Assembly: GCA_951406725.2 (NCBI GenBank)
Contig: OX597821.1
Coordinates: 16,182,001-16,246,000, forward strand
Length of the DNA stretch: 64,000 bases
Origin: Octopus vulgaris
Lineage: Eukaryota
Reading direction: 5' to 3'
Translations under genes and position numbers: made by a program
Notes under the pieces: model-generated
What the model was told of the DNA's origin: nothing
The model's database searches: none
What the model saw: the letters and a program-made list of their open reading frames with translations, nothing else
Part shown: positions 44,707-57,360 of the stretch, in pieces
Position numbering within the stretch: the stretch's first letter is position 1
Layout of the letters: each line of letters starts with the position of its first letter

Positions 44707-46127
44707 ACAAGTGGTTAAGCGAATTATTAGCCGTACAGGCAAATTAATAAAATATATACTTACAATATTAAATATGTACGTATATACACAAGGGTACCTC
44801 ATGAGTACCTATATCTCTAGTGATAGAAGTCAAAAAACTTCTGTACCACCGAATAGTCACAAATCTATTTCAGACAATATAGGAAAAAATATCCTTAAAT
44901 CCGTAAATCCTTAAAAATGTTTTAGCCCGTAGGCCGCTGCCATGCTGGGGCACAACCGCTGAATGAGCTACACTAATATGTGAATCCACCTCTGGTACGT
45001 GGCACTTGATCAACAAGGGAGTTCGATGTCGCTGCCCGCATCTGTCTCCTGTCGTGAGGTAGGTTCATCTGGGACCCCCGACAAGAAGAGATCCAGTTTA
45101 GTTTTAAAGAAACCCACATCCACACCATGTAAGTCTCTCAGGCATTTAGGGAGGATGTTAAAGAGCTGTGGTCCTCTGAAACCCAAGCTGTTGCAGTATC
45201 TGGACCTGTATTTTGATGGTGATGTTGGAATTTTTGGTACCATGCAGTGGCGCCCCGTTCTGCGGTTGGGGTAACTTTGAATGCCAAAGTTTGGGACAAG
45301 ACCCTCCAGGATTTTCCAAATATATATCACCGCATATCTCTCCCGCCTTCGCTCTAGGGAGAAGAGGTTTAATACTTTCAGTCTTTCCCAGTAGCTGATA
45401 TTTTGCATTGAGACGATCTTCTTTGTGTAGCTTCTTTGAATTGCTTCGAGTTCTGCTGTTAGTTTTATATTGTGTGGTGACCACAGTTGGGAGCAGTAGT
45501 CCAAGCGGCTGAGGACGAATGTTTTCCATAGGACCATCAGTGTCTCCTTCTCTCTTGTTCTGAAAGTTCGAAGAATCCATCCAGCTAGCTGTCTGCATTT
45601 TATCACCAGATTAGTAATATCCACTTGGAAAGATGCATCGTTGCTCATGTCAATGCCCAGGTCATGCACTGATTTTGACTCAGGGATTGCAATTCTTCCT
45701 GGGCCAGTGTATCCAGTCTGCACGTCGTTTACCTTTGTGTGCCGATAGCGCAGGGCCTGGAAATTACCTGCGTTAAACTGTATGTTGTTGTCCTCAGCCC
45801 ACCTGTATATTGTATCCAACTCCTGTTACAGATGCGAAATATTTTCAGGGTTTTGTATTGTGTGGGAGACTTTTGTGTCATCTGCATAGCTAGCAATATC
45901 AGTGAACAATAATAATGTCTTACCTCAAATGGGTCAGAACAAGTAAATTCTGGTCAACTTGGTACCGGTTTCGTAATTTAGCGCCACCTAGGTATCGAGT
46001 TGACCAGCATTCTATTATTAGCGATATATGTACTCATGTGGTACCCTTGTGTATGTATGTATATATTTAATATTGTATGTATATATTTTATTAATTTGCC
46101 TGTACGGCTAATTCGCTTACCACTTGT
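44707..46127. mobile_element. Element bounded by ~120-bp inverted repeats (MITE/foldback-like), interrupted by a LINE
   Basis: 44707-44828 is an imperfect reverse complement of 46010-46127 (ACAAGTGGT...GCCGTACAGGCAAATTAATAAAATATATAC...). Confidence 0.7.
44891..45895 (-). mobile_element. 5'-truncated CR1/L2-group LINE: RT C-terminal half, 3' UTR and 8-bp tail repeats
   Basis: ASYADDTK at about 45870-45894, an in-frame stop, then the 269-aa ORF (DLGI, SRLDYCSQLWSP, LEAIQR, SLERRRER); ATCCTTAA-like repeats at 44891-44914. Confidence 0.92.
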
Positions 46128-46149
46128 AGATACATACATATATATATAT

Positions 46150-46258
46150 ATACGTACAGGTACTCCAAATTTCATTAGAATCGGTCCAGTACTTTTGTAG
46201 TCTATAAGTAACACACGAGCACACAAACACATAGACATTAACTTTTATTTAATAGATG
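46150..46258 (-). mobile_element. Helitron-like 5' terminal fragment
   Basis: CCAAATTTCATTAGAATCGGTCCAG...ACATTAACTTTTATTTAATAGAT; A|TC start on the minus strand. Confidence 0.45.
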
Positions 46259-46902
46259 AGCATGTCTAGACATGAACTATATGCCTGAGAATACATACAT
46301 AAAACATAAAAATCTGCACATACATGCATTCCGACCGACATACATACATGCATACATACCCGTTTGCTGATGTTGAAATTCTAATAAACAAACCTTGGAG
46401 CTAGGGTAGAAACCAGTTCTTTTTCTATTGGCAAGAAAATTTGAAATAAATTGAATAAGGACATACATACTACATACATACATACATACATACATACATC
46501 AATACATACATACATACAAATATGCACATACAATGGCTCCAAATATTTACCCGCATGCAAATATACTTGCACAATTACTGTGTCGACGGAGTTGAAATTC
46601 CACACATATGCATACATACAGAACAGGATAATAAATAGTTAAGACTTCTACAGACCAACTTGTCTATGATGAAACGAAGAATATTGGTGGATTTTAGAGG
46701 TTAAATACGCCATTTAGGTTCTCGGTGTGAGAATGCAAGTCCTTAATTCATACACTACAAATGATTACAATATTGGATGTTATAAAAGATATGGATGCCG
46801 TCTTACGATTTAAAGCAATGGTTCCCAATCTTTTCCCTACCAAGAACCGTTATAATATGTTTATCCTTATGTATATACATACATATATACTCTTTTACTA
46901 TT

Positions 46903-47107
46903 TTACTTGTTTCAGTCATTTCACTGCGGCCATGCTGGAGCACCGCCTTTAATCGAGCAACTCGACCCCAGGACTTATTCTTTGTAAGCCCAGTACTTAT
47001 TCTATCGATCTCTTTTGCCTAACCGCTAAGTTACGGGGACATAAACACACCAGCATCGGTTGTCAAGCAATGCTAGGGAGACAAACACAGACACACAAAC
47101 ATACACG

Positions 47108-47174
<67 letters not shown>

Positions 47175-47554
47175 GACGGGCTTCTTTTAGTTTCCGCCTA
47201 CCAAATCCACTCACAAGGATTTGGTCGGCCCGAGGCTATAGTAGAAGACACTTGCCCAAGGTGGCACGCAGTGGGACTGAACCCGGAACCATGTGGTTGG
47301 TAAACAAGCTACCTACCGCACAGCCATATATATATATATATGTGGTTGGTAAACAAGCTACCTACCGCACAGCCATATATATATATATATATATATATAT
47401 GGCTGTGCGGTAGGTAGCTTGTTTACCAACCACATGGTTCCGGGTTCAGTCCCACTGCGTGGCACCTTGGGCAAGTGTCTTCTACTATAGCCTCGGGCCG
47501 ACCAAATCCTTGTGAGTGGATTTGGTAGGCGGAAACTAAGAGAAGCCCGTCGTA

Positions 47555-47600
<46 letters not shown>

Positions 47601-47735
47601 CGTGTATGTTTGTGTGTCTGTGTTTGTCTCCCTAGCATTGCTTGACAACCGATGCTGGTGTGTTTATGTCCCCGTAACTTAGCGGTTAGGCAAAAGAGAT
47701 CGATAGAATAAGTACTGGGCTTACAAAGAATAAGT
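46903..47735. mobile_element. SINE family B copy (-) plus its local inverted duplicate (+, 47401-47735)
   Basis: Both arms share private variants absent from the other family B copies; (TA)n centre at 47375-47400. Confidence 0.9.
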
Positions 47736-48656
47736 ATATATATATATACGAAATTTTGAATTTAGTTTTTGGACTCCCAGTACTACATTTGCGGACCACC
47801 AGGGTGTTTCACAGGGTGTTCAAATTTTAAAAGATGATGATCAAAGTAAGCTGCTTTCCGTCAAAACCTTTCCACCAAATATTTGGCTGGTCAAAATTAT
47901 TCTGAATTAACAAGAGAAAGAGATAATGGCTAAATGCTAGATATATCAATGTAATACATAATTCCTTTGTAAATGTCTTCAAGATCTACATTTAAAATTT
48001 TCAACTGACATAGGGATGGAATTTGGCCAACGATGGAGCTTAATATCTTCGTTACAAACTTTCTCCTTTCTCAGAGGAAGAATGCATATTATGGAAAATA
48101 TACATACATACATACATACATACAAAACGGAATTAGAAAAATCTTCCCGACCGAACCTCTAACAACCTCAGTGTATCAATCACCTTTGTATGGCTCTAAG
48201 TTTGATCGAACTCGGATGGCAATTCAAAGTTGAACACGGCGATTCTGAACTCAGGGCACAGAGGTTTAAACAAATGCCGATTAGCATCCTACGCAAATTT
48301 CAAACGATTCTGTTAATTCGGCAATTTGGTTCGTTGAATAAAACTCCTTTAATACTACCGAGTAAAGGTGAATAAACAACTAACAAACAAAGAGACCGTA
48401 AAGAAAGATTCGTTTCAAAATGGCTACCTTTATTAGACTAAACATTTGATTGCATAAATATATTACAACACAAACAGACCTTCAGCAATAGACATATGGT
48501 AATGTGATACCTAATAAACTCAAATTTGTTAATAACTTCAACTGTTGATGTACTAATTTCAGAACTAGGCAATAAATGCAGAAGCGTGAGCGTAGAGGCA
48601 GTTATCTAAAGAGGTAAGAAGGGGGATAGACAGATGAATAGATAGAGTGAGTGAGC

Positions 48657-48729
<73 letters not shown>

Positions 48730-48769
48730 ATAGATTGATAGATAGATGGAAATAGATAGATAGATGGAA

Positions 48770-48821
<52 letters not shown>

Positions 48822-48843
48822 GGAGAGAGAGAGAGAGAGAGAG
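48657..48843. repeat. (GATA)n plus (GA)n microsatellite
   Basis: Direct reading. Confidence 0.95.
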
Positions 48844-49417
48844 CAAGAAAACACTCAAACATACACCACTACACAATCCCACACAGACACACCCACGTAA
48901 ACATACAAAAAACATATACATACACATACAAACACACTAGCACACATATATATGTATGTGCACACACACACGTGTGTGTGTGTGTGTCTGTATGTATATA
49001 TATATATATAGTCGCAGTCGTAACTGTGTGGTAAGAAATTTGTTTCCCAACCACTTACTTTCATGTTCAGTTTCACTCCATGGAATCTTCGGCGAGTGTT
49101 TTCCACTGACAATGTGTAGAGTGTACGGGTGTGCGTGTACGCGCGCACGAGTCTGTAGTATCATCTGCTTGTACATGAAGGTGTGTCTACGTCTGTGCAT
49201 GTCAGTTCTCTGCTCCCCATCCATCGCTGGTTTAGAGAGGACCCAGTAATTTAGCAGATAAAAAGTTTATAGAGTACCAGACTTCCTATATTACTACTGG
49301 TGTGGATTAGTTCGATGAATATCCGTCAACTTGTTCCAGTGAGTGGAAAAAATAGAAGTTAACAAATACGGATAGTCATGATGGTATGTCATTATTGTTA
49401 TAAATGTCGATATAAAA

Positions 49418-49821
49418 GGCGCAGGAGTGACTGTGTGGTAAGTAGCTTGCTAAACAACCACATGGTTCCGGGTTCAGTCCCACTGCGTGGCATCTTGGGC
49501 AAGTGTCTTCTGCTATAGCCCCGGGCCGACCAATGCCTTGTGAGTGGATTTGGTAGACGGAAACTGAAGGAAGCCTGTCGTATATATGTATATATATATA
49601 TGTATGTGTATGTTTGTGTGTTTGTGTGTCTGTGTTTGTTCCCCTAGCATTGCTTGACAACCGATGCTGGTGTGTTTACGTCCCCGTAACCTAGCGGTTC
49701 GGCAATAAGAGACCGATAGAATAAGTACTGGGCTTACAAAAAGACGAGTTGCTTGACTAAAGGTGGTGCTCCAGCATGGCCACAGTCAAATGAGTGAAAC
49801 AAGTAAAAGAGTAAAAGAGAG
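49418..49821 (+). mobile_element. SINE family B copy
   Basis: Homology to 16607-17006. Confidence 0.9.
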
Positions 49822-49991
49822 TAACGGTGAAGTAGAAAACCGTATACTTCTTTTATTAAATTCCATAAATTAATAAGTTATTTTCTATAAACAAGATCCA
49901 TAATCCTTAAGTTTGTTATAAATTAATCTTATCAATTAAACATACGCAGTAAATTGAGTAAGCAGAAGAAGAGGAGACGTGTCGGATTCAG

Positions 49992-50036
49992 GGTCGCTGA
50001 TGAGGTCACAGGATGTGTGACGAAAGAGCTTCGATT
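49992..50036 (+). ncRNA. Minimal type I hammerhead ribozyme motif
   Basis: Stem I GGUCG/CGAUU; core CUGAUGA (49997-50003); stem II GUCACA-GGAUG-UGUGAC; GAAAG-AG-CUU. Confidence 0.65.
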
Positions 50037-50289
50037 AAATGACAAAAACAATAAGGATAAAGTGAAGTGGGGACCAAATATATAATGCGTGTGTCAAAGT
50101 GGCCAAATATGACCGTCCCCCAAGTATACCAATATCTGATTCAATATAACAAATGTATTTGGCATTTTGTTGGTTCATAGATTAATCATCACTCCAATAC
50201 TCTACTGTCAATACAAAATATATATATCATCATAGAAAACCTCCCTGTCTCTCTCTCCCCAACTCTCTTTATCTCTCACTCTGTATGTA

Positions 50290-50353
<64 letters not shown>

Positions 50354-50643
50354 GAGAGAGAGAATGCAGAGAATCACGACAAATCACATACACACACAGA
50401 CACACAAACACACACACACACAAACACATACACACATGCATATATATATATATGTATATAAAGGGAATGTTCTTTAAGCTGCCCGTCTCGTTTCTCTATT
50501 TGCTTATTTCGTTGTTCGGAAAAAGTTCGTTTTCCATGTTTTTGTATTTAATGTATCCTTTCTCATTTTGTTCACGTATATTTTTACATCATGTACCCAT
50601 AAATGCACGAATATATACGTATATATGTAGGTATGTACATATA

Positions 50644-50685
<42 letters not shown>

Positions 50686-50826
50686 GCAATAAAGATTCAA
50701 GTCAATTTTAATGAATTTACTTGAATATGGTACCTAACTTAGATGCACCAAAAAACTATACGGTTTTAACCATACAGTAATGTGGGGTGATTATAAGCGA
50801 GAAAGAAGCAACAAGAATGGATAAGT

Positions 50827-50917
50827 TTTTAGTACAATCGTTTCATACAAAGACAGGCTTTATTAAAAGTTGCAAAGATTGCAGCATATAAACGTGTCCT
50901 GTACTCATCAGCTAAAA
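50827..50917 (-). ncRNA. Type I hammerhead ribozyme motif (left palindrome arm)
   Basis: Mirror image of 51677-51767. Confidence 0.7.
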
Positions 50918-51676
50918 TACATGTGAGTTCTCTAGACATCTTAGTGGTTGAGGCTATACTCATGAAGTAATGTAGATAATTAAGTAACATAAACAGATTT
51001 CCAAAGTTCATTAAAGTTCTTTAAAGATGATGCATAGTCTTATCACAGATTTTTAAAAAAGTTTTAATAGCATCACAGAGAAGGTGACTTAATCCATAGT
51101 GTACATATGAATTTCCAGAGATATGAGGAGGGATTACATACTCACAGACGACAAATTTATCCATGGCTAATCACAACGAGGTGGGTATCAATTCCTGCGT
51201 ATTAGCATTACAGAGAGGGTGAATTAATCCTTTGTATAGGTGCACAATTTCAATGGTGTAGATGTAAATTTCCAGAGAAATGAAGAGGAATTTCAAATTG
51301 AAATTCCTCTTCATTTCTCTGAAATTTACATCTACACCATTGGAAATTGTGCACCTATACAAAGGATTAATTCACCCTCTCTGTAATGCTAATACGCAGG
51401 AATTGATACCCACCTCGTTGTGATTAGCCATGGATAAATTTGTCGTCTGTGAGTATGTAATCCCTCCTCATATCTCTGGAAATTCATATGTACACTATGG
51501 ATTAAGTCACCTTCTCTGTGATGCTATTAAAACTTTTTTAAAAATCTGTGATAAGATTATGCATCATCTTTAAAGAACTTTAATGAACTTTGGAAATCTG
51601 TTTATGTTACTTAATTATCTACATTACTTCATGAGTATAGCCTCAACCACTAAGATGTCTAGAGAACTCACATGTA

Positions 51677-51767
51677 TTTTAGCTGATGAGTACGGGACAC
51701 GTTTATATGCTGCAATTTTTGCAACTTTTAATAAAGCCTGTCTTTGTATGAAACGATTGTACTAAAA
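51677..51767 (+). ncRNA. Type I hammerhead ribozyme motif with long stem II (right palindrome arm)
   Basis: Stem I UUUUAG/CUAAAA; core CUGAUGA (51683-89); ~60-nt stem II (GUACGGGACA...UGUCUUUGUAU, apical UGCAA/UUGCA); GAAAC-GAUU-GUA; predicted cleavage after 51761. Confidence 0.7.
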
Positions 51768-51796
51768 ACTTATCCATTCTTGTTGCTTCTTTCTCG

Positions 51797-51840
<44 letters not shown>

Positions 51841-52050
51841 GTGTGTGTGTATATATATATATGTATGCATGTATATATATCAAAATAATCAACAGCATAT
51901 CAAGTAGTAATGCAGTACGACCCACTTGATATCCTGTTACTAATTTTGCTTGGATTCACCTTTCTTCGAGCTGGCGGATAATAGCGGACCGACTTGGTAA
52001 TTCAACTTAAGTACCTAATTCAACCGAATCTAAGTCATTTCTTTATATAC

Positions 52051-52082
<32 letters not shown>

Positions 52083-52146
52083 TTGTGTGCACGTGTGTGT
52101 GTGTGTATATGTATGTATGTGTGTATGCATGTATTTTTTTAAATTT

Positions 52147-52346
52147 CTTTCGATCATTTGACTGCGGCCATGCTGGAGCACCGCATTTAGTCGAGCAGAT
52201 CGCCCCCGGGACTTATTCCTTGTAAGCCCAGTACTTATTCTATCGGTTTCTTTTGCCGAACCGCTAAGTGATGGGGACGTAAACACACCAGCATCGGTTG
52301 TCAAGCAATGCTAGAGGGACAGACACTGACACACAAACACACAAAC

Positions 52347-52377
<31 letters not shown>

Positions 52378-52538
52378 CGACAGGCTTCTTTCAGTTTCCG
52401 TCTACCAAATCCACTCACAAGGCATTGGTCGGCCCGGGGCTATAGCAGAAGACACTTGCCCAAGATGCCACGCAGTGGGACTGAATCCGGAACCATGTGG
52501 CTGGTTAGCAAGCTACTTACCACACAGCCACTCCTGCG

Positions 52539-52540
<2 letters not shown>
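52147..52540 (-). mobile_element. SINE family B copy
   Basis: Reverse complement of the 49418-49821 type. Confidence 0.9.
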
Positions 52541-52592
<52 letters not shown>

Positions 52593-52597
52593 TAGAG

Positions 52598-52642
<45 letters not shown>

Positions 52643-52734
52643 TATACACACACACTTACACTCAGTCACAGAGACATGCATGCGGTCCTAAGGAATTTGT
52701 GGTTATATATATTTTACGATATCTTTTATCTTTT

Positions 52735-53011
52735 CGTTGTTTCGGTCATTAGACAGTGACCATGCTGGGGCACCGCGTTGACGATTGAGCCGAAACCAGT
52801 ACATTGTTTAAAACCTGATATAGTTATTTCAATGGTTCTTTATTATTTTTTTTTTTTTTTGCCGCAGCAGAAAATAACTGTGAGAACATATACAAGTACA
52901 CACCGGTTGTGAAGTAGTGATGGAGAGACAAACACACACGGGTGGCCACGCAGACATACACGCACACTCACGCATACAGACACACACGAACGCGTACACA
53001 CACAGTCAGAC

Positions 53012-53079
<68 letters not shown>

Positions 53080-53225
53080 ACATAACTGGATTCTTCCACT
53101 TTCCCTCTCACAAAATCCATTCACAAGACATTGGTCGGCCTGAGGTTGTACCAGAAGGCCACTGAACAGGTTGGACCCGAAACCATGTGTTTGGGAAGCA
53201 GGCTACATATCACGCAGTCACGCCT
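52735..53225 (-). mobile_element. Old diverged SINE family B copy
   Basis: CATGCTGGGGCACCGC tail and AAATCCATTCACAAGACATTGGTCGGCC body. Confidence 0.65.
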
Positions 53226-53305
53226 AAAATATTATATAGCTTTTGTTATTAGAATTTGTTATTAGATATTCTTTCTAAAATATACAACATATCTATCTAT
53301 CTATA

Positions 53306-53341
<36 letters not shown>

Positions 53342-53745
53342 AATATATATAACGAAACACACATATAGTCATAATTACACCCGCAAAGATCAATCGGTGA
53401 TTATAGCTGCAACTCGGTCTACTTATCTCCCTTGATGACATAAGCAAAAAAGTCGTACACGGTTACGTCCCTTATTCACTATTCATTTTGTTAAGTCAGC
53501 ATATCTGTGAATAAATATGTAGTAATGCAGGTACGTAAAATATAATCATTGCAGCGTAGATCATACACCACTATATTGTGTAGCTGTGAAATACGTACTT
53601 AAATTGAACTAAAAGTAATAATAATAAAAGCTAATGTGAAGATTAAACAAACACTGCGTGTGTATAACCAGTAGGAGATGACCTTTCCCACAGATACATA
53701 CACATACGCATGTAGAAACGACAGCAAATTCATATATTGAATGTG

Positions 53746-53787
<42 letters not shown>

Positions 53788-53814
53788 CGGCGAACCAGTG
53801 TATATATATATATC

Positions 53815-54015
53815 TTTTATTTGTTTCAGTCATTTGACTGCGGCCATGCTTGACCACCGCCTTTAGTCGAGCAACTCGACCCCGGGACTTCTTCTTTTTG
53901 TACTTATAGTACTTATACTATCGGTCTTTTTTTGCCGAACCGCTAAGTGACGGGGACATATACACACCAGCATCGGTTGTCAAGCAATGCTAGAGGGACA
54001 AACACAGACACACAA

Positions 54016-54056
<41 letters not shown>

Positions 54057-54225
54057 CATATATACGACAGGCTTCTTTCGGTTTCCGTCTACCAAACCCA
54101 CTCACAAGGCCTTGGTCGGCCTGGGACTATAGTAGAAGACACTTGACCAAGATGCCACGCAGTGTGACTGAACCCGGAACCATGTGGTTGGTTAGCAAGC
54201 TATCTACCACACAGCCACTCCTGCA

Positions 54226-54227
<2 letters not shown>
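53815..54227 (-). mobile_element. SINE family B copy
   Basis: Homology to the family. Confidence 0.9.
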
Positions 54228-54303
<76 letters not shown>

Positions 54304-54339
54304 TATGTATGTATGTATGGATGGATGGATGGATGTATA

Positions 54340-54700
54340 GGCGCGGGAGTGGCTATGTGGTGAGAAGTATGCTTCTCAACCATATTGTTCCAGGTTCAGT
54401 CCCACTTGGCAAGTGTCTTCCACTATAGCCTCGGGCCCACCAAAATCTTGTATGTGGATTTGGTAGACGGAAACTGAAAGAAGCCCGTCGTATTTAAATA
54501 TATATGTGTTTGTGAGTCTATATTTGGTCCCCCACCCCACCATCGCTTGACAACCGGTGTGCTTAAGTCCCAGTAACTTTGCGGTTCGGCAAAATAAACC
54601 GATATAATCAGTATCATGCTTACAAAGAATAAATTCTGGTGTCTGTTCGTCTAAAGGCGGTGCTACAGCATGACTGCTGTCAGATGACTGAAACCATATA
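54340..54700 (+). mobile_element. SINE family B copy, head-to-head with 53815-54227
   Basis: Homology to the family; more diverged, so an independent insertion. Confidence 0.85.
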
Positions 54701-55186
54701 AAAGAACTAAAGAAGCGAGTTCGATTCCCTGATCGGTTGTGTGTTTTGTTTATTTGGTATTGCTCCAGTTAACTGAGTTGTAGAAATAAGTTGCAACGTC
54801 ACTGGTGCCAGGCTGTACTGACTTTTGGCTTCCCCTTGAATAACATCGGTGGCGGACAGAGCATACGCTGGTATGCATGGGTGTCATCGGGTCTTCCATA
54901 AACAATATTCCCCGGACTTTTGCCACGCAGAGGAACCTTCTATGTTCAATCTTATATCCGTTCACGACTGAAGGGGTTCTTTACTATACATTTATACGTA
55001 TGCATGTGTGTGTAGGTATACACTTTTATACGACTGGCTTCTTTCAATTTCTGTCTACCGAAACCACTCACAGTACTTTAGTCGATCTGGTCTATTCCTA
55101 CACACACTTGCTCAATTTACCACACAGTGATACTGAGCCCGGATCTATGTGGTGGGGTAGCAATCTTCTTACAACATAGCCACCCC

Positions 55187-55662
<476 letters not shown>

Positions 55663-57360
55663 ATCGGTATGTATGTATGTGTACATTTCTGTATATTACC
55701 TTGTTCTTGTGTTTTCTGTCTTTGGTACCGTCTTCAATGTTTTAATGAACCCTGTTGTTCCAACGTGCCTTATGGTAAATTATATCGTTTTCTATTCATC
55801 CAAAACCCTATAATTACGGTACGTAAAAGGAACACTACGACCACTACTGCTTTTCAAACATACTTTTTCATAAACGCAAATTTGAACTTTCACGCTAGTA
55901 ACAACACAAACACACACACGCACGCGCATACACACACACATTCACACACACACACATTCACACACACACACACAAACACTCATCCACACACATATATATA
56001 CAATATTTTCCTTGTTTGCTTTTCATATACAATTAGTATATTTTTGTATATACCGTATTTCTAGTGTTAAAAGTAGATATCTACGTTACAACGCTTCCTC
56101 GTTTTTACATTTTATCTGGAGTAATTACATAGTTAGCGATTTCTGTTTCATTTGTAACTAAGTGGAAATGACAGCTTTTAGTTTCTCCCTTTCGTCTTAA
56201 TGTTTTGTAAAAATTCGATACAACATTGCAAATAATGAAAAATTCAATCTTGTATGTTTAAGATGACAAAACCTGAAAAAAAATATGCTGCTTTGAACAT
56301 GTGCATTGACATTACATGCCTGCTTCTGTCGTGCCATCTCTCTATGCAAATAAAATATCTAAAAATGGTTATTCTTTCTAGTTAAAATCTATTGTGAACT
56401 TTAAATGAGGATTTCTACTGACAATGAGATTTATAAGTCCAATAAGTTTATCATGAGATTTCTGTCAATAAATGAAACAGTTAAATAAATTTTTGCGAAA
56501 TAATGCTTCCAAATATTTATAAAGATTCATTTTCTTCTCATGGTAATTCATCTCTCTTATAGCAGTAGAAGGGATAACTCTAGTTCCCATTAGTAGCACA
56601 AACTTTTATACATCAAGACAATGTTTAAGGGCTCTAATTTCATAGTCGTGAGTGATATAACTCTATAAATCGACCTTAAACAATAAATGTATTTTGGCAC
56701 ACTACTTTCCGATACCCAAAATGCAAGTTTGCATTTAATACTTTAATAGTATATCAAACATTTTTAATCTGTCTTTTACGGACATGACCCGCTTTAACTA
56801 ACTCAGATCTCTGGAGATGATATTTTACTATTTTTTGTTTTCGACTATTTAAAGAGTCAAGTACAGTTTTATGTTTGTAAATTTGGGGTAGGCCATAAAA
56901 AAGTGTCTTTGTGCATCAGATGTTGTAAATATGATCAAAGCGTTTGTTACTCGAAATTCACGGCACACACACAAACACACACATGCAAGTTAAAGATTTT
57001 GTGCGAGAGAGACAGAGAGAGTGTTTGTGAATGTATGTGTACACGACAGGCTTGTTGCACGCAGTCCTTTTTCCAAATCATACCAAAGAAATCACCGCAT
57101 TAGCCTAGAGGCTTTGTTTGAAAACATTTCTCTGTGGAGTAACGCAGCGATCGATCACATGTTCTCGCGGTTGTGGAGTATGTTTTTCCACCTCACAGCC
57201 AAGCAGACCCCCAAAATATTGACTCATTGATCATTTATGAAATGCGTTCTTCGTGTCATATTTTTCTGGTAATCTTCCTCAAATTTCTTTTCCTGTAGTG
57301 ATAGTGCCATGTTTATTTTACAAACCTCCATTCCTAATTGATATTTGGCCAACTGAGAAG

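Follow-up and report, generated by a model that had tools for sequence, protein, structure and literature searches.

In Penelope-like elements (PLEs), an inverted copy on the 5' side and a tail at one end only are standard features, according to the available parts of PMC8557442. The closest described relatives of the element reported here form the Hydra clade of C-terminal EN+ PLEs (Craig et al. 2021, PMC8557442), which includes Hydra-1_Obim and Penelope-13_HM. As far as the accessible text of that paper goes, the clade shares with the octopus element the RWK, DKT, CxCX5C, CxxC and CxH motifs, the lack of CCHH, a C-terminal GIY-YIG domain, (TA)n targeting and a type I hammerhead ribozyme (HHR) near the 3' end. 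Its supplement, in the part available, gives Penelope-13_HM an inverted 5'-truncated copy with an HHR on each strand. In contrast, the octopus unit measures about 4.6 kb, versus under 3 kb in the Hydra clade, and its open reading frame (ORF) of about 955 amino acids (aa) carries Asn-rich inserts. Helix II of its hammerhead is 60 nt long, versus about 10 to 25 nt in 26 Hydra HHR rows of the accessible part of the supplement, and its tail is about 110 nt, versus the usual 30 to 40 bp. Since the HHR sequence also differs from that of Hydra-1_oBim, we treat the octopus element as another family.

Head-to-head palindromes in Penelope insertions have been published before. In the available portions of the work on Adineta vaga Penelope (Arkhipova et al. 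2013, PMC3846280), inverted pLTRs stand head to head with palindromes at their junctions, the tail is optional and confined to one arm, and the ORF has Asn-rich inserts, all as seen here; self-priming was proposed there. Unlike the octopus family, these elements have a low copy number, and their palindromes, of 18 to 38 bp and situated at the 5' ends of pLTRs, are described qualitatively; those portions do not count how many junctions are symmetric. The literature searched, mostly open-access papers, contained no census of PLE junction symmetry.

Biochemical data come from Poseidon PAc of Anolis (Frangieh et al. 2024, PMC11167929). In the sections of that study available, the anole PLE protein is modeled as a dimer and cuts and extends both strands of an AT-rich target, two internal reverse transcription (RT) start sites bracket the tail, and HHR cleavage is dispensable. 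The octopus family resembles Poseidon PAc in its AT-rich target and, in the mechanism proposed below, in these two starts, in the extension of both strands and in the dispensability of cleavage. However, Poseidon PAc belongs to a different clade, its RT starts lie inside the ORF rather than in the 5' UTR as here, and end-joining was not studied there. According to the same sections, the steps of Penelope integration that follow first-strand synthesis are still unvalidated.

The same type I core and the same short self-complementary helix III occur in minimal and dimeric hammerheads of PLEs and in non-LTR retrozymes (PMC4209133, PMC7229834 and bioRxiv 10.64898/2026.07.22.740005, each in part). 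Unlike retrozymes, the octopus element forms no head-to-tail tandem array, and its helix II is much longer. HHR pairs on opposite strands, 100 to 700 bp apart, are noted in Schistosoma in the available text of PMC4209133.

Results

The longest inverted repeat of the window (the 64-kb stretch of Octopus vulgaris DNA analyzed here) is a 1-kb palindrome. Local alignment confirmed what a preliminary description of this DNA had stated, namely, that the 505-bp arms at 50792-51296 and 51298-51802 differ by three transitions and two single-base indels and are separated by a single unpaired base, 51297. The central junction sequence around this base occurs once in the genome. As also described earlier, the left arm runs on for 110 nt (50682-50791) up to (TA)n, and the right arm passes straight into (TA)n. 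The parts of the locus are as follows, where e coordinates are positions along the natural full-length copy L045.

50611-50681, no strand: (TA)n-rich target microsatellite, left flank; TA-rich runs flank all 36 paired insertions (sample C, below)
50682-50791, minus strand: PLE tail of about 110 nt, ending at the fixed distal end of the family, e4636
50792-51296, minus strand: tailed arm, a 5'-truncated pLTR/3' UTR (e4016-4524) with 96.9% identity to the full-length L045
50827-50917, minus strand: left copy of the type I hammerhead motif, with its core at 50911-50905 and its cut predicted after 50833; these positions mirror those of the right copy
51297, no strand: head-to-head junction, 1 unpaired base
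51298-51802, plus strand: tail-less inverted arm (e4020-4524), stopping at the fixed proximal end of the family, CTCGCTTATA
51677-51767, plus strand: type I hammerhead motif, right copy; predicted cut after A51761
51799-51880, no strand: (TA)n-rich target microsatellite, right flank; TATA is common to the flank and the element end

The arm substitutions are at 50877/51717 (G/A), 50900/51694 (T/C) and 51037/51557 (G/A), and the indels are at 51251/51343 and 51272/51321. Each indel shortens a CC/GG dinucleotide near the center, and the G absent at 51320 is present in contigs of all four sequencing runs placed on 51255-51795; the indels may therefore be sequencing errors or private mutations. Their closeness to the center would also suit a fold-back read or assembly artifact, as would the finding that none of the contig pieces listed for these four runs spans the center (3,135 further pieces lie beyond those listed). 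However, a fold-back chimera would mirror the tail and the left flank, whereas the right arm stops at the fixed tail-less end of the family and meets a different flank, which makes an artifact unlikely. In addition, the three arm substitutions are within the range of other insertions, and the same layout is found at 27 loci with distinct centers. The palindrome is very likely real genomic DNA, and we give the artifact reading almost no credence. The preliminary description had favored the same view because the substitutions are all transitions; the indels are a caveat on its argument. One of the three transitions falls on a CpG that differs among family members (G in 97, A in 17).

The arm proved to be the 3' end (pLTR) of a PLE of about 4.6 kb with an RT domain and, C-terminally, a GIY-YIG domain. 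A search of the 2.8-Gb genome with one arm gave 2,078 first-look candidates, of which the best 40 were scored and were 96 to 100% identical over the whole arm. Inverted copies and a linked PLE ORF, which the preliminary description had proposed to look for, were found. The full unit, L045, reads pLTR-tail-ORF-3' UTR-pLTR-tail over 4,636 nt, with an inverted piece on its 5' side. The arrangement in which pLTRs result from a partial tandem and an inverted 5'-truncated copy with a one-sided tail is seen in L045, L113 and L182-L192. In full-length tandem copies, the tail sequence is the 5' UTR, and in L045 it runs on to the ORF start. Fifteen exact matches to the pLTR-ORF junction were recovered; the ORF of 949 to 957 aa is uninterrupted in six, interrupted in eight and unscored in one. 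Given six intact ORFs, the family is likely still able to move.

One uninterrupted protein, P0062 (957 aa in a single ORF), contains YRDD and VIY...YIG. Pfam matched GIY-YIG on the C-terminal piece below its cutoff (E = 0.005) and gave no hit to the longer proteins; 58 homologues, mostly unnamed, were found. The Hydra motifs of P0062 are IRWKTY at 37, ADKTGN at 124 with no DKG, CKCRIKSKC (CxCX5C), CQLC (CxxC) and CVH (CxH); reading by eye found no CCHH. Insertion into (TA)n, another Hydra trait, is borne out by the printed flanks of the insertions. The unit of 4,636 nt departs from the Hydra length of under 3 kb, which is a tendency and not diagnostic in the available text of PMC8557442. Judged by its motifs (RWK, DKT, CxCX5C, CxxC and CxH, without CCHH), the element is a member of the Hydra clade. 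The family is undescribed in the open literature searched and may already be in Repbase or Dfam. We consider it nearly certain that the palindrome is a shortened (5'-truncated) head-to-head insertion of a Hydra-type Penelope-like retrotransposon in (TA)n.

Related sequences were also seen elsewhere. In Octopus sinensis, the gene model P0022, which bears the name of an ankyrin-repeat protein, contains about 200 aa that are 69% identical to the N-terminal/RT region of the element; it is either a merged annotation or an exonized relative. Sequencing runs of four organisms contain a third or more of the words of the arm, which points to close relatives of this PLE family in other species.

A 25-mer covering the HHR core has 928 exact matches in the genome, and its reversed control has 0. 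Among the first 100 of these 928 matches, neighbors within 6 kb were outward facing in 37 cases, inward facing in none and on the same strand in 2. A non-LTR retrozyme reading was rejected on these counts and on the head-to-head arms, and a Naiad reading was rejected on layout and domain order. From the same 100 matches, 36 outward pairs were assembled as sample C, with the composite locus L164/L165 set aside. Every pair (36/36) has one tailed end (e4636), one tail-less end (about e4524) and TA-rich flanks, and one tailed and one tail-less end were likewise found in all 9 full-length insertions with both ends seen (of 12). The earlier reading of the locus as a PLE insertion with inverted pLTRs and a variable tail was thus borne out, with the tail confined to one side. 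Because hundreds of copies have the same layout, the locus is ordinary: its palindrome is a product of the likely integration mode and not a unique RNA device.

When the whole window was scanned on both strands for hammerhead core and stems, exactly two type I HHR motifs emerged, at +51683 and -50911, matching the earlier account of one outward-facing hammerhead with a stem II of about 60 nt in each arm. The layout is TTTAG-CTGATGA-(60 nt)-GAAA-CGATTG-TA-CTAAA, which contains the type I core CUGANGA / GAAA / NUH with helices I to III. The right copy has a 6-bp stem I, CUGAUGA at 51683-51689, an irregular 60-nt helix II at 51690-51749, GAAA and a self-complementary helix III, ACGAUUGU. Against 51677-51767, Rfam Hammerhead_1 gave a weak match (18.4 bits versus a gathering score of 34; E = 0.041 with 161 bases searched), probably because of a 56-nt insert in helix II. 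Rfam over 45000-57000 returned no HHR; its matches, all with scores under the gathering threshold, were to miRNA, snoRNA and comparable hairpin or repeat models. The 60-nt helix II probably causes standard HHR descriptors and the Rfam gathering cutoff to miss the motif. Conservation of the hammerhead among homologous copies, on which the preliminary description had made its reading depend, was high: the core, stem I and the closing pair of helix III are kept in 107 of 117 full-length instances from 70 insertions.

The predicted HHR cut site is at e4483; the two ends of insertions are found 41 and 153 nt further downstream. The 15 upstream pLTR starts span e3324-e4605, and none is at e4484, the HHR cut. 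HHR cleavage was therefore rejected as the source of the insertion ends. The monomer fold of the HHR is predicted to lie 2.8 to 3.5 kcal/mol above the minimum free energy (MFE), and a helix III self-duplex is predicted at -5.8 kcal/mol. The self-complementary helix III is typical of dimer-dependent PLE HHRs.

These results bear on the proposal that the palindrome functions, or is under selection, as a hairpin RNA whose 3' end is made by the ribozyme and which serves as a substrate of ADAR or Dicer. A read-through transcript is indeed predicted to form a duplex of about 505 bp (the predicted fold of 50682-51802 has -908 kcal/mol), and both arms retain an intact HHR core. If transcribed, a long duplex could incidentally serve ADAR or Dicer as a substrate. 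The pLTR of the family is covered by contigs from a run presumed to be RNA, although they are not assignable to the window copy. Against this proposal, the locus is a young copy among hundreds with a unique center, and its ends do not map to the cut site. In an outward pair, the sense HHR lies downstream of the antisense copy, which is transcribed first, so a read-through transcript is predicted to zip the HHR into the duplex; the duplex of about 505 bp would thereby mask the ribozyme, whose monomer fold is in any case above the MFE. Finally, single minimal metazoan PLE HHRs had no detectable in vitro cleavage in the available part of PMC4209133. A hairpin RNA with a self-defined 3' end, as suggested earlier, is therefore very improbable.

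Junctions were compared in two samples that share two loci, and a junction was scored as symmetric when both 5' ends lay within 15 nt. Sample C yielded 33 simple junctions after 3 complex pairs of the 36 were left out. Sample A comprised 43 tail-less ends, including that of the window, and also yielded 33 after 10 loci without a simple resolved junction were left out. Symmetric spacer-less junctions numbered 14/33 in sample C (permutation mean, 1.8; maximum, 9 in 20,000) and 14/33 in sample A (1.5 expected). About 40% of the paired insertions of the family are thus spacer-less palindromes, and the earlier impression that such a palindrome is unusual was not supported. Arm lengths range from 140 to 2,633 bp in sample C, and the window copy is a mid-to-large member of a common class. 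The longest arms belong to L153 (G000:C1:224763950-224769800), a spacer-less palindrome centered on a natural palindrome of about 20 nt in the ORF.

The longer arm is the tail-less one at 10/33 and 9/33 junctions of the two samples; the tail-less arm is therefore not always a copy of the tailed arm. Because either arm can be longer, the tail-less end must itself be a genuine site of initiation and cannot solely mark where a copy of the other arm ended. A search for a variant tail-less end pattern, one T shorter than that of L045, gave no match. Arm-to-arm substitutions amounted to 3.7/kb in symmetric and 6.0/kb in asymmetric insertions, with medians to other copies of about 9 to 35/kb; in sample C, the values were 6.8/kb (symmetric) versus 3.8/kb (asymmetric), with L153 supplying 37 of 44 substitutions. 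Alleles exclusive to both arms of one insertion were present in 14 of 21 insertions checked, symmetric and asymmetric, and in L043 the arms share private alleles even though the tail-less arm exceeds its tailed partner by 1.85 kb. As judged from this low divergence and these private alleles, both arms of an insertion come from one source. L046 is an exception; its arms differ at seven family-polymorphic sites, which suggests two templates.

Two routes could yield symmetric junctions. In the first, which we favor, two cDNAs meet. In the second, the element is the same but the spacer-less class arises by snap-back, in which the 3' end of a single cDNA folds back and primes a copy of that cDNA; afterward, the newly made strand either pairs with the other end or is cleaved at TATA before the tail. 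Snap-back explains symmetric junctions equally well, and self-priming, on an antisense template, was proposed for palindromes at PLE inverted junctions in the accessible text of PMC3846280. Natural hairpins have been reused independently (e4214 in L109 and L145; e4073 in L069 and L142), and the window center is one base off a fold-back of natural sequence with a 3-nt loop. Symmetric axes fall on short natural palindromes above chance (mean stem, 2.36 versus 1.44; P = 2e-5; 22/27), in an axis-based test whose reference is about 3% divergent and whose outcome is partly built into the definition of a symmetric junction. It replaced a cruder test of hairpin preference, anchored on BLAST ends, that was negative (P = 0.33). 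However, 12 of the 27 symmetric centers have 0 or 1 unpaired bases, frequently at 4-nt palindromes that would be too tight to loop in cis, some symmetric junctions (L116, L154 and L162) contain fillers of 25 to 125 nt, and snap-back fails for insertions whose longer arm is tail-less. We consider snap-back possible but somewhat improbable, and we lean toward the two-cDNA route.

Further features of the junctions were observed. Independent insertions L171, L173, L175 and L138 share a 5' end at e4224-4229, possibly a transcription start or the boundary of a source copy. Junction fillers in L116, L123, L131, L137, L141 and L154 are short, local templated duplications, which we take to resemble polymerase-theta end joining.

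Within the pLTR/3' UTR lies a tandem duplication that is old and imperfect (51093-51138 versus 51250-51295; 158-nt spacing, 80 to 83% identity), which is family-wide at approximately e3960-4062 versus e4118-4220. Either side of the PLE insertion, 2.5 kb apart, lie inverted copies of a common short repeat (49417-49705 and 52253-52541; 289 nt, 94%). A small fold-back at 47291-47432 is a 49-nt tandem duplication of the end of a short interspersed repeat between two inverted copies of the repeat. On the minus strand, 45010-45825 is a 271-aa open frame with no Pfam hit at 1e-3 that presumably represents the C-terminal part of a LINE reverse transcriptase. The search for host genes gave no Pfam hit in the 62 of 147 candidate ORFs scanned.

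Discussion

As a whole, the locus is with good probability explained as a truncated head-to-head insertion of a Hydra-type PLE, likely made by two cDNAs. In the mechanism that we propose, both cut target strands would prime reverse transcription on RNA of one source. RT would start at two fixed sites about 112 nt apart, giving one tailed and one tail-less cDNA. In about 60% of insertions, the cDNAs would stop independently, leaving unequal arms; in about 40%, they would stop at the same template point, for which the simplest explanation may be a shared RNA 5' end. Host end-joining would then connect the cDNAs, either at self-complementary microhomologies of 1 to 10 nt or with short fillers templated locally, and a shared stop would produce a perfect palindrome like that of the window. 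The two outward-facing hammerheads would be passengers of the pLTR. By analogy, the anole PLE data fit a true start at the tail-less end and priming on two strands.

A broader statement is conceivable, although we consider it less likely than not: that the element represents a recently active Hydra family, so far undescribed, whose HHR has a 60-nt helix II and whose tail is about 110 nt long; that its hundreds of young insertions record two-cDNA integration, with both target strands primed on one template at two fixed sites and one tail in each insertion; and that about 40% of them become perfect palindromes, up to 5 kb in size, where the two cDNAs end at a common RNA 5' end.

On its own, the locus is of little importance, being one of hundreds of transposon insertions. 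Modest interest lies at the level of the family, in its long helix II, its long tail, its six intact ORFs and junction statistics that constrain integration. Young copies with a strict one-tail rule, arms of the same source and a large symmetric class yield predictions that are testable with an intact ORF. If the two-cDNA statement is true, the family would be a steady source of long palindromes able to form double-stranded RNA in its host and, with its six intact ORFs, would be readily usable for studying in vitro the unsolved second-end step by which Penelope elements integrate.
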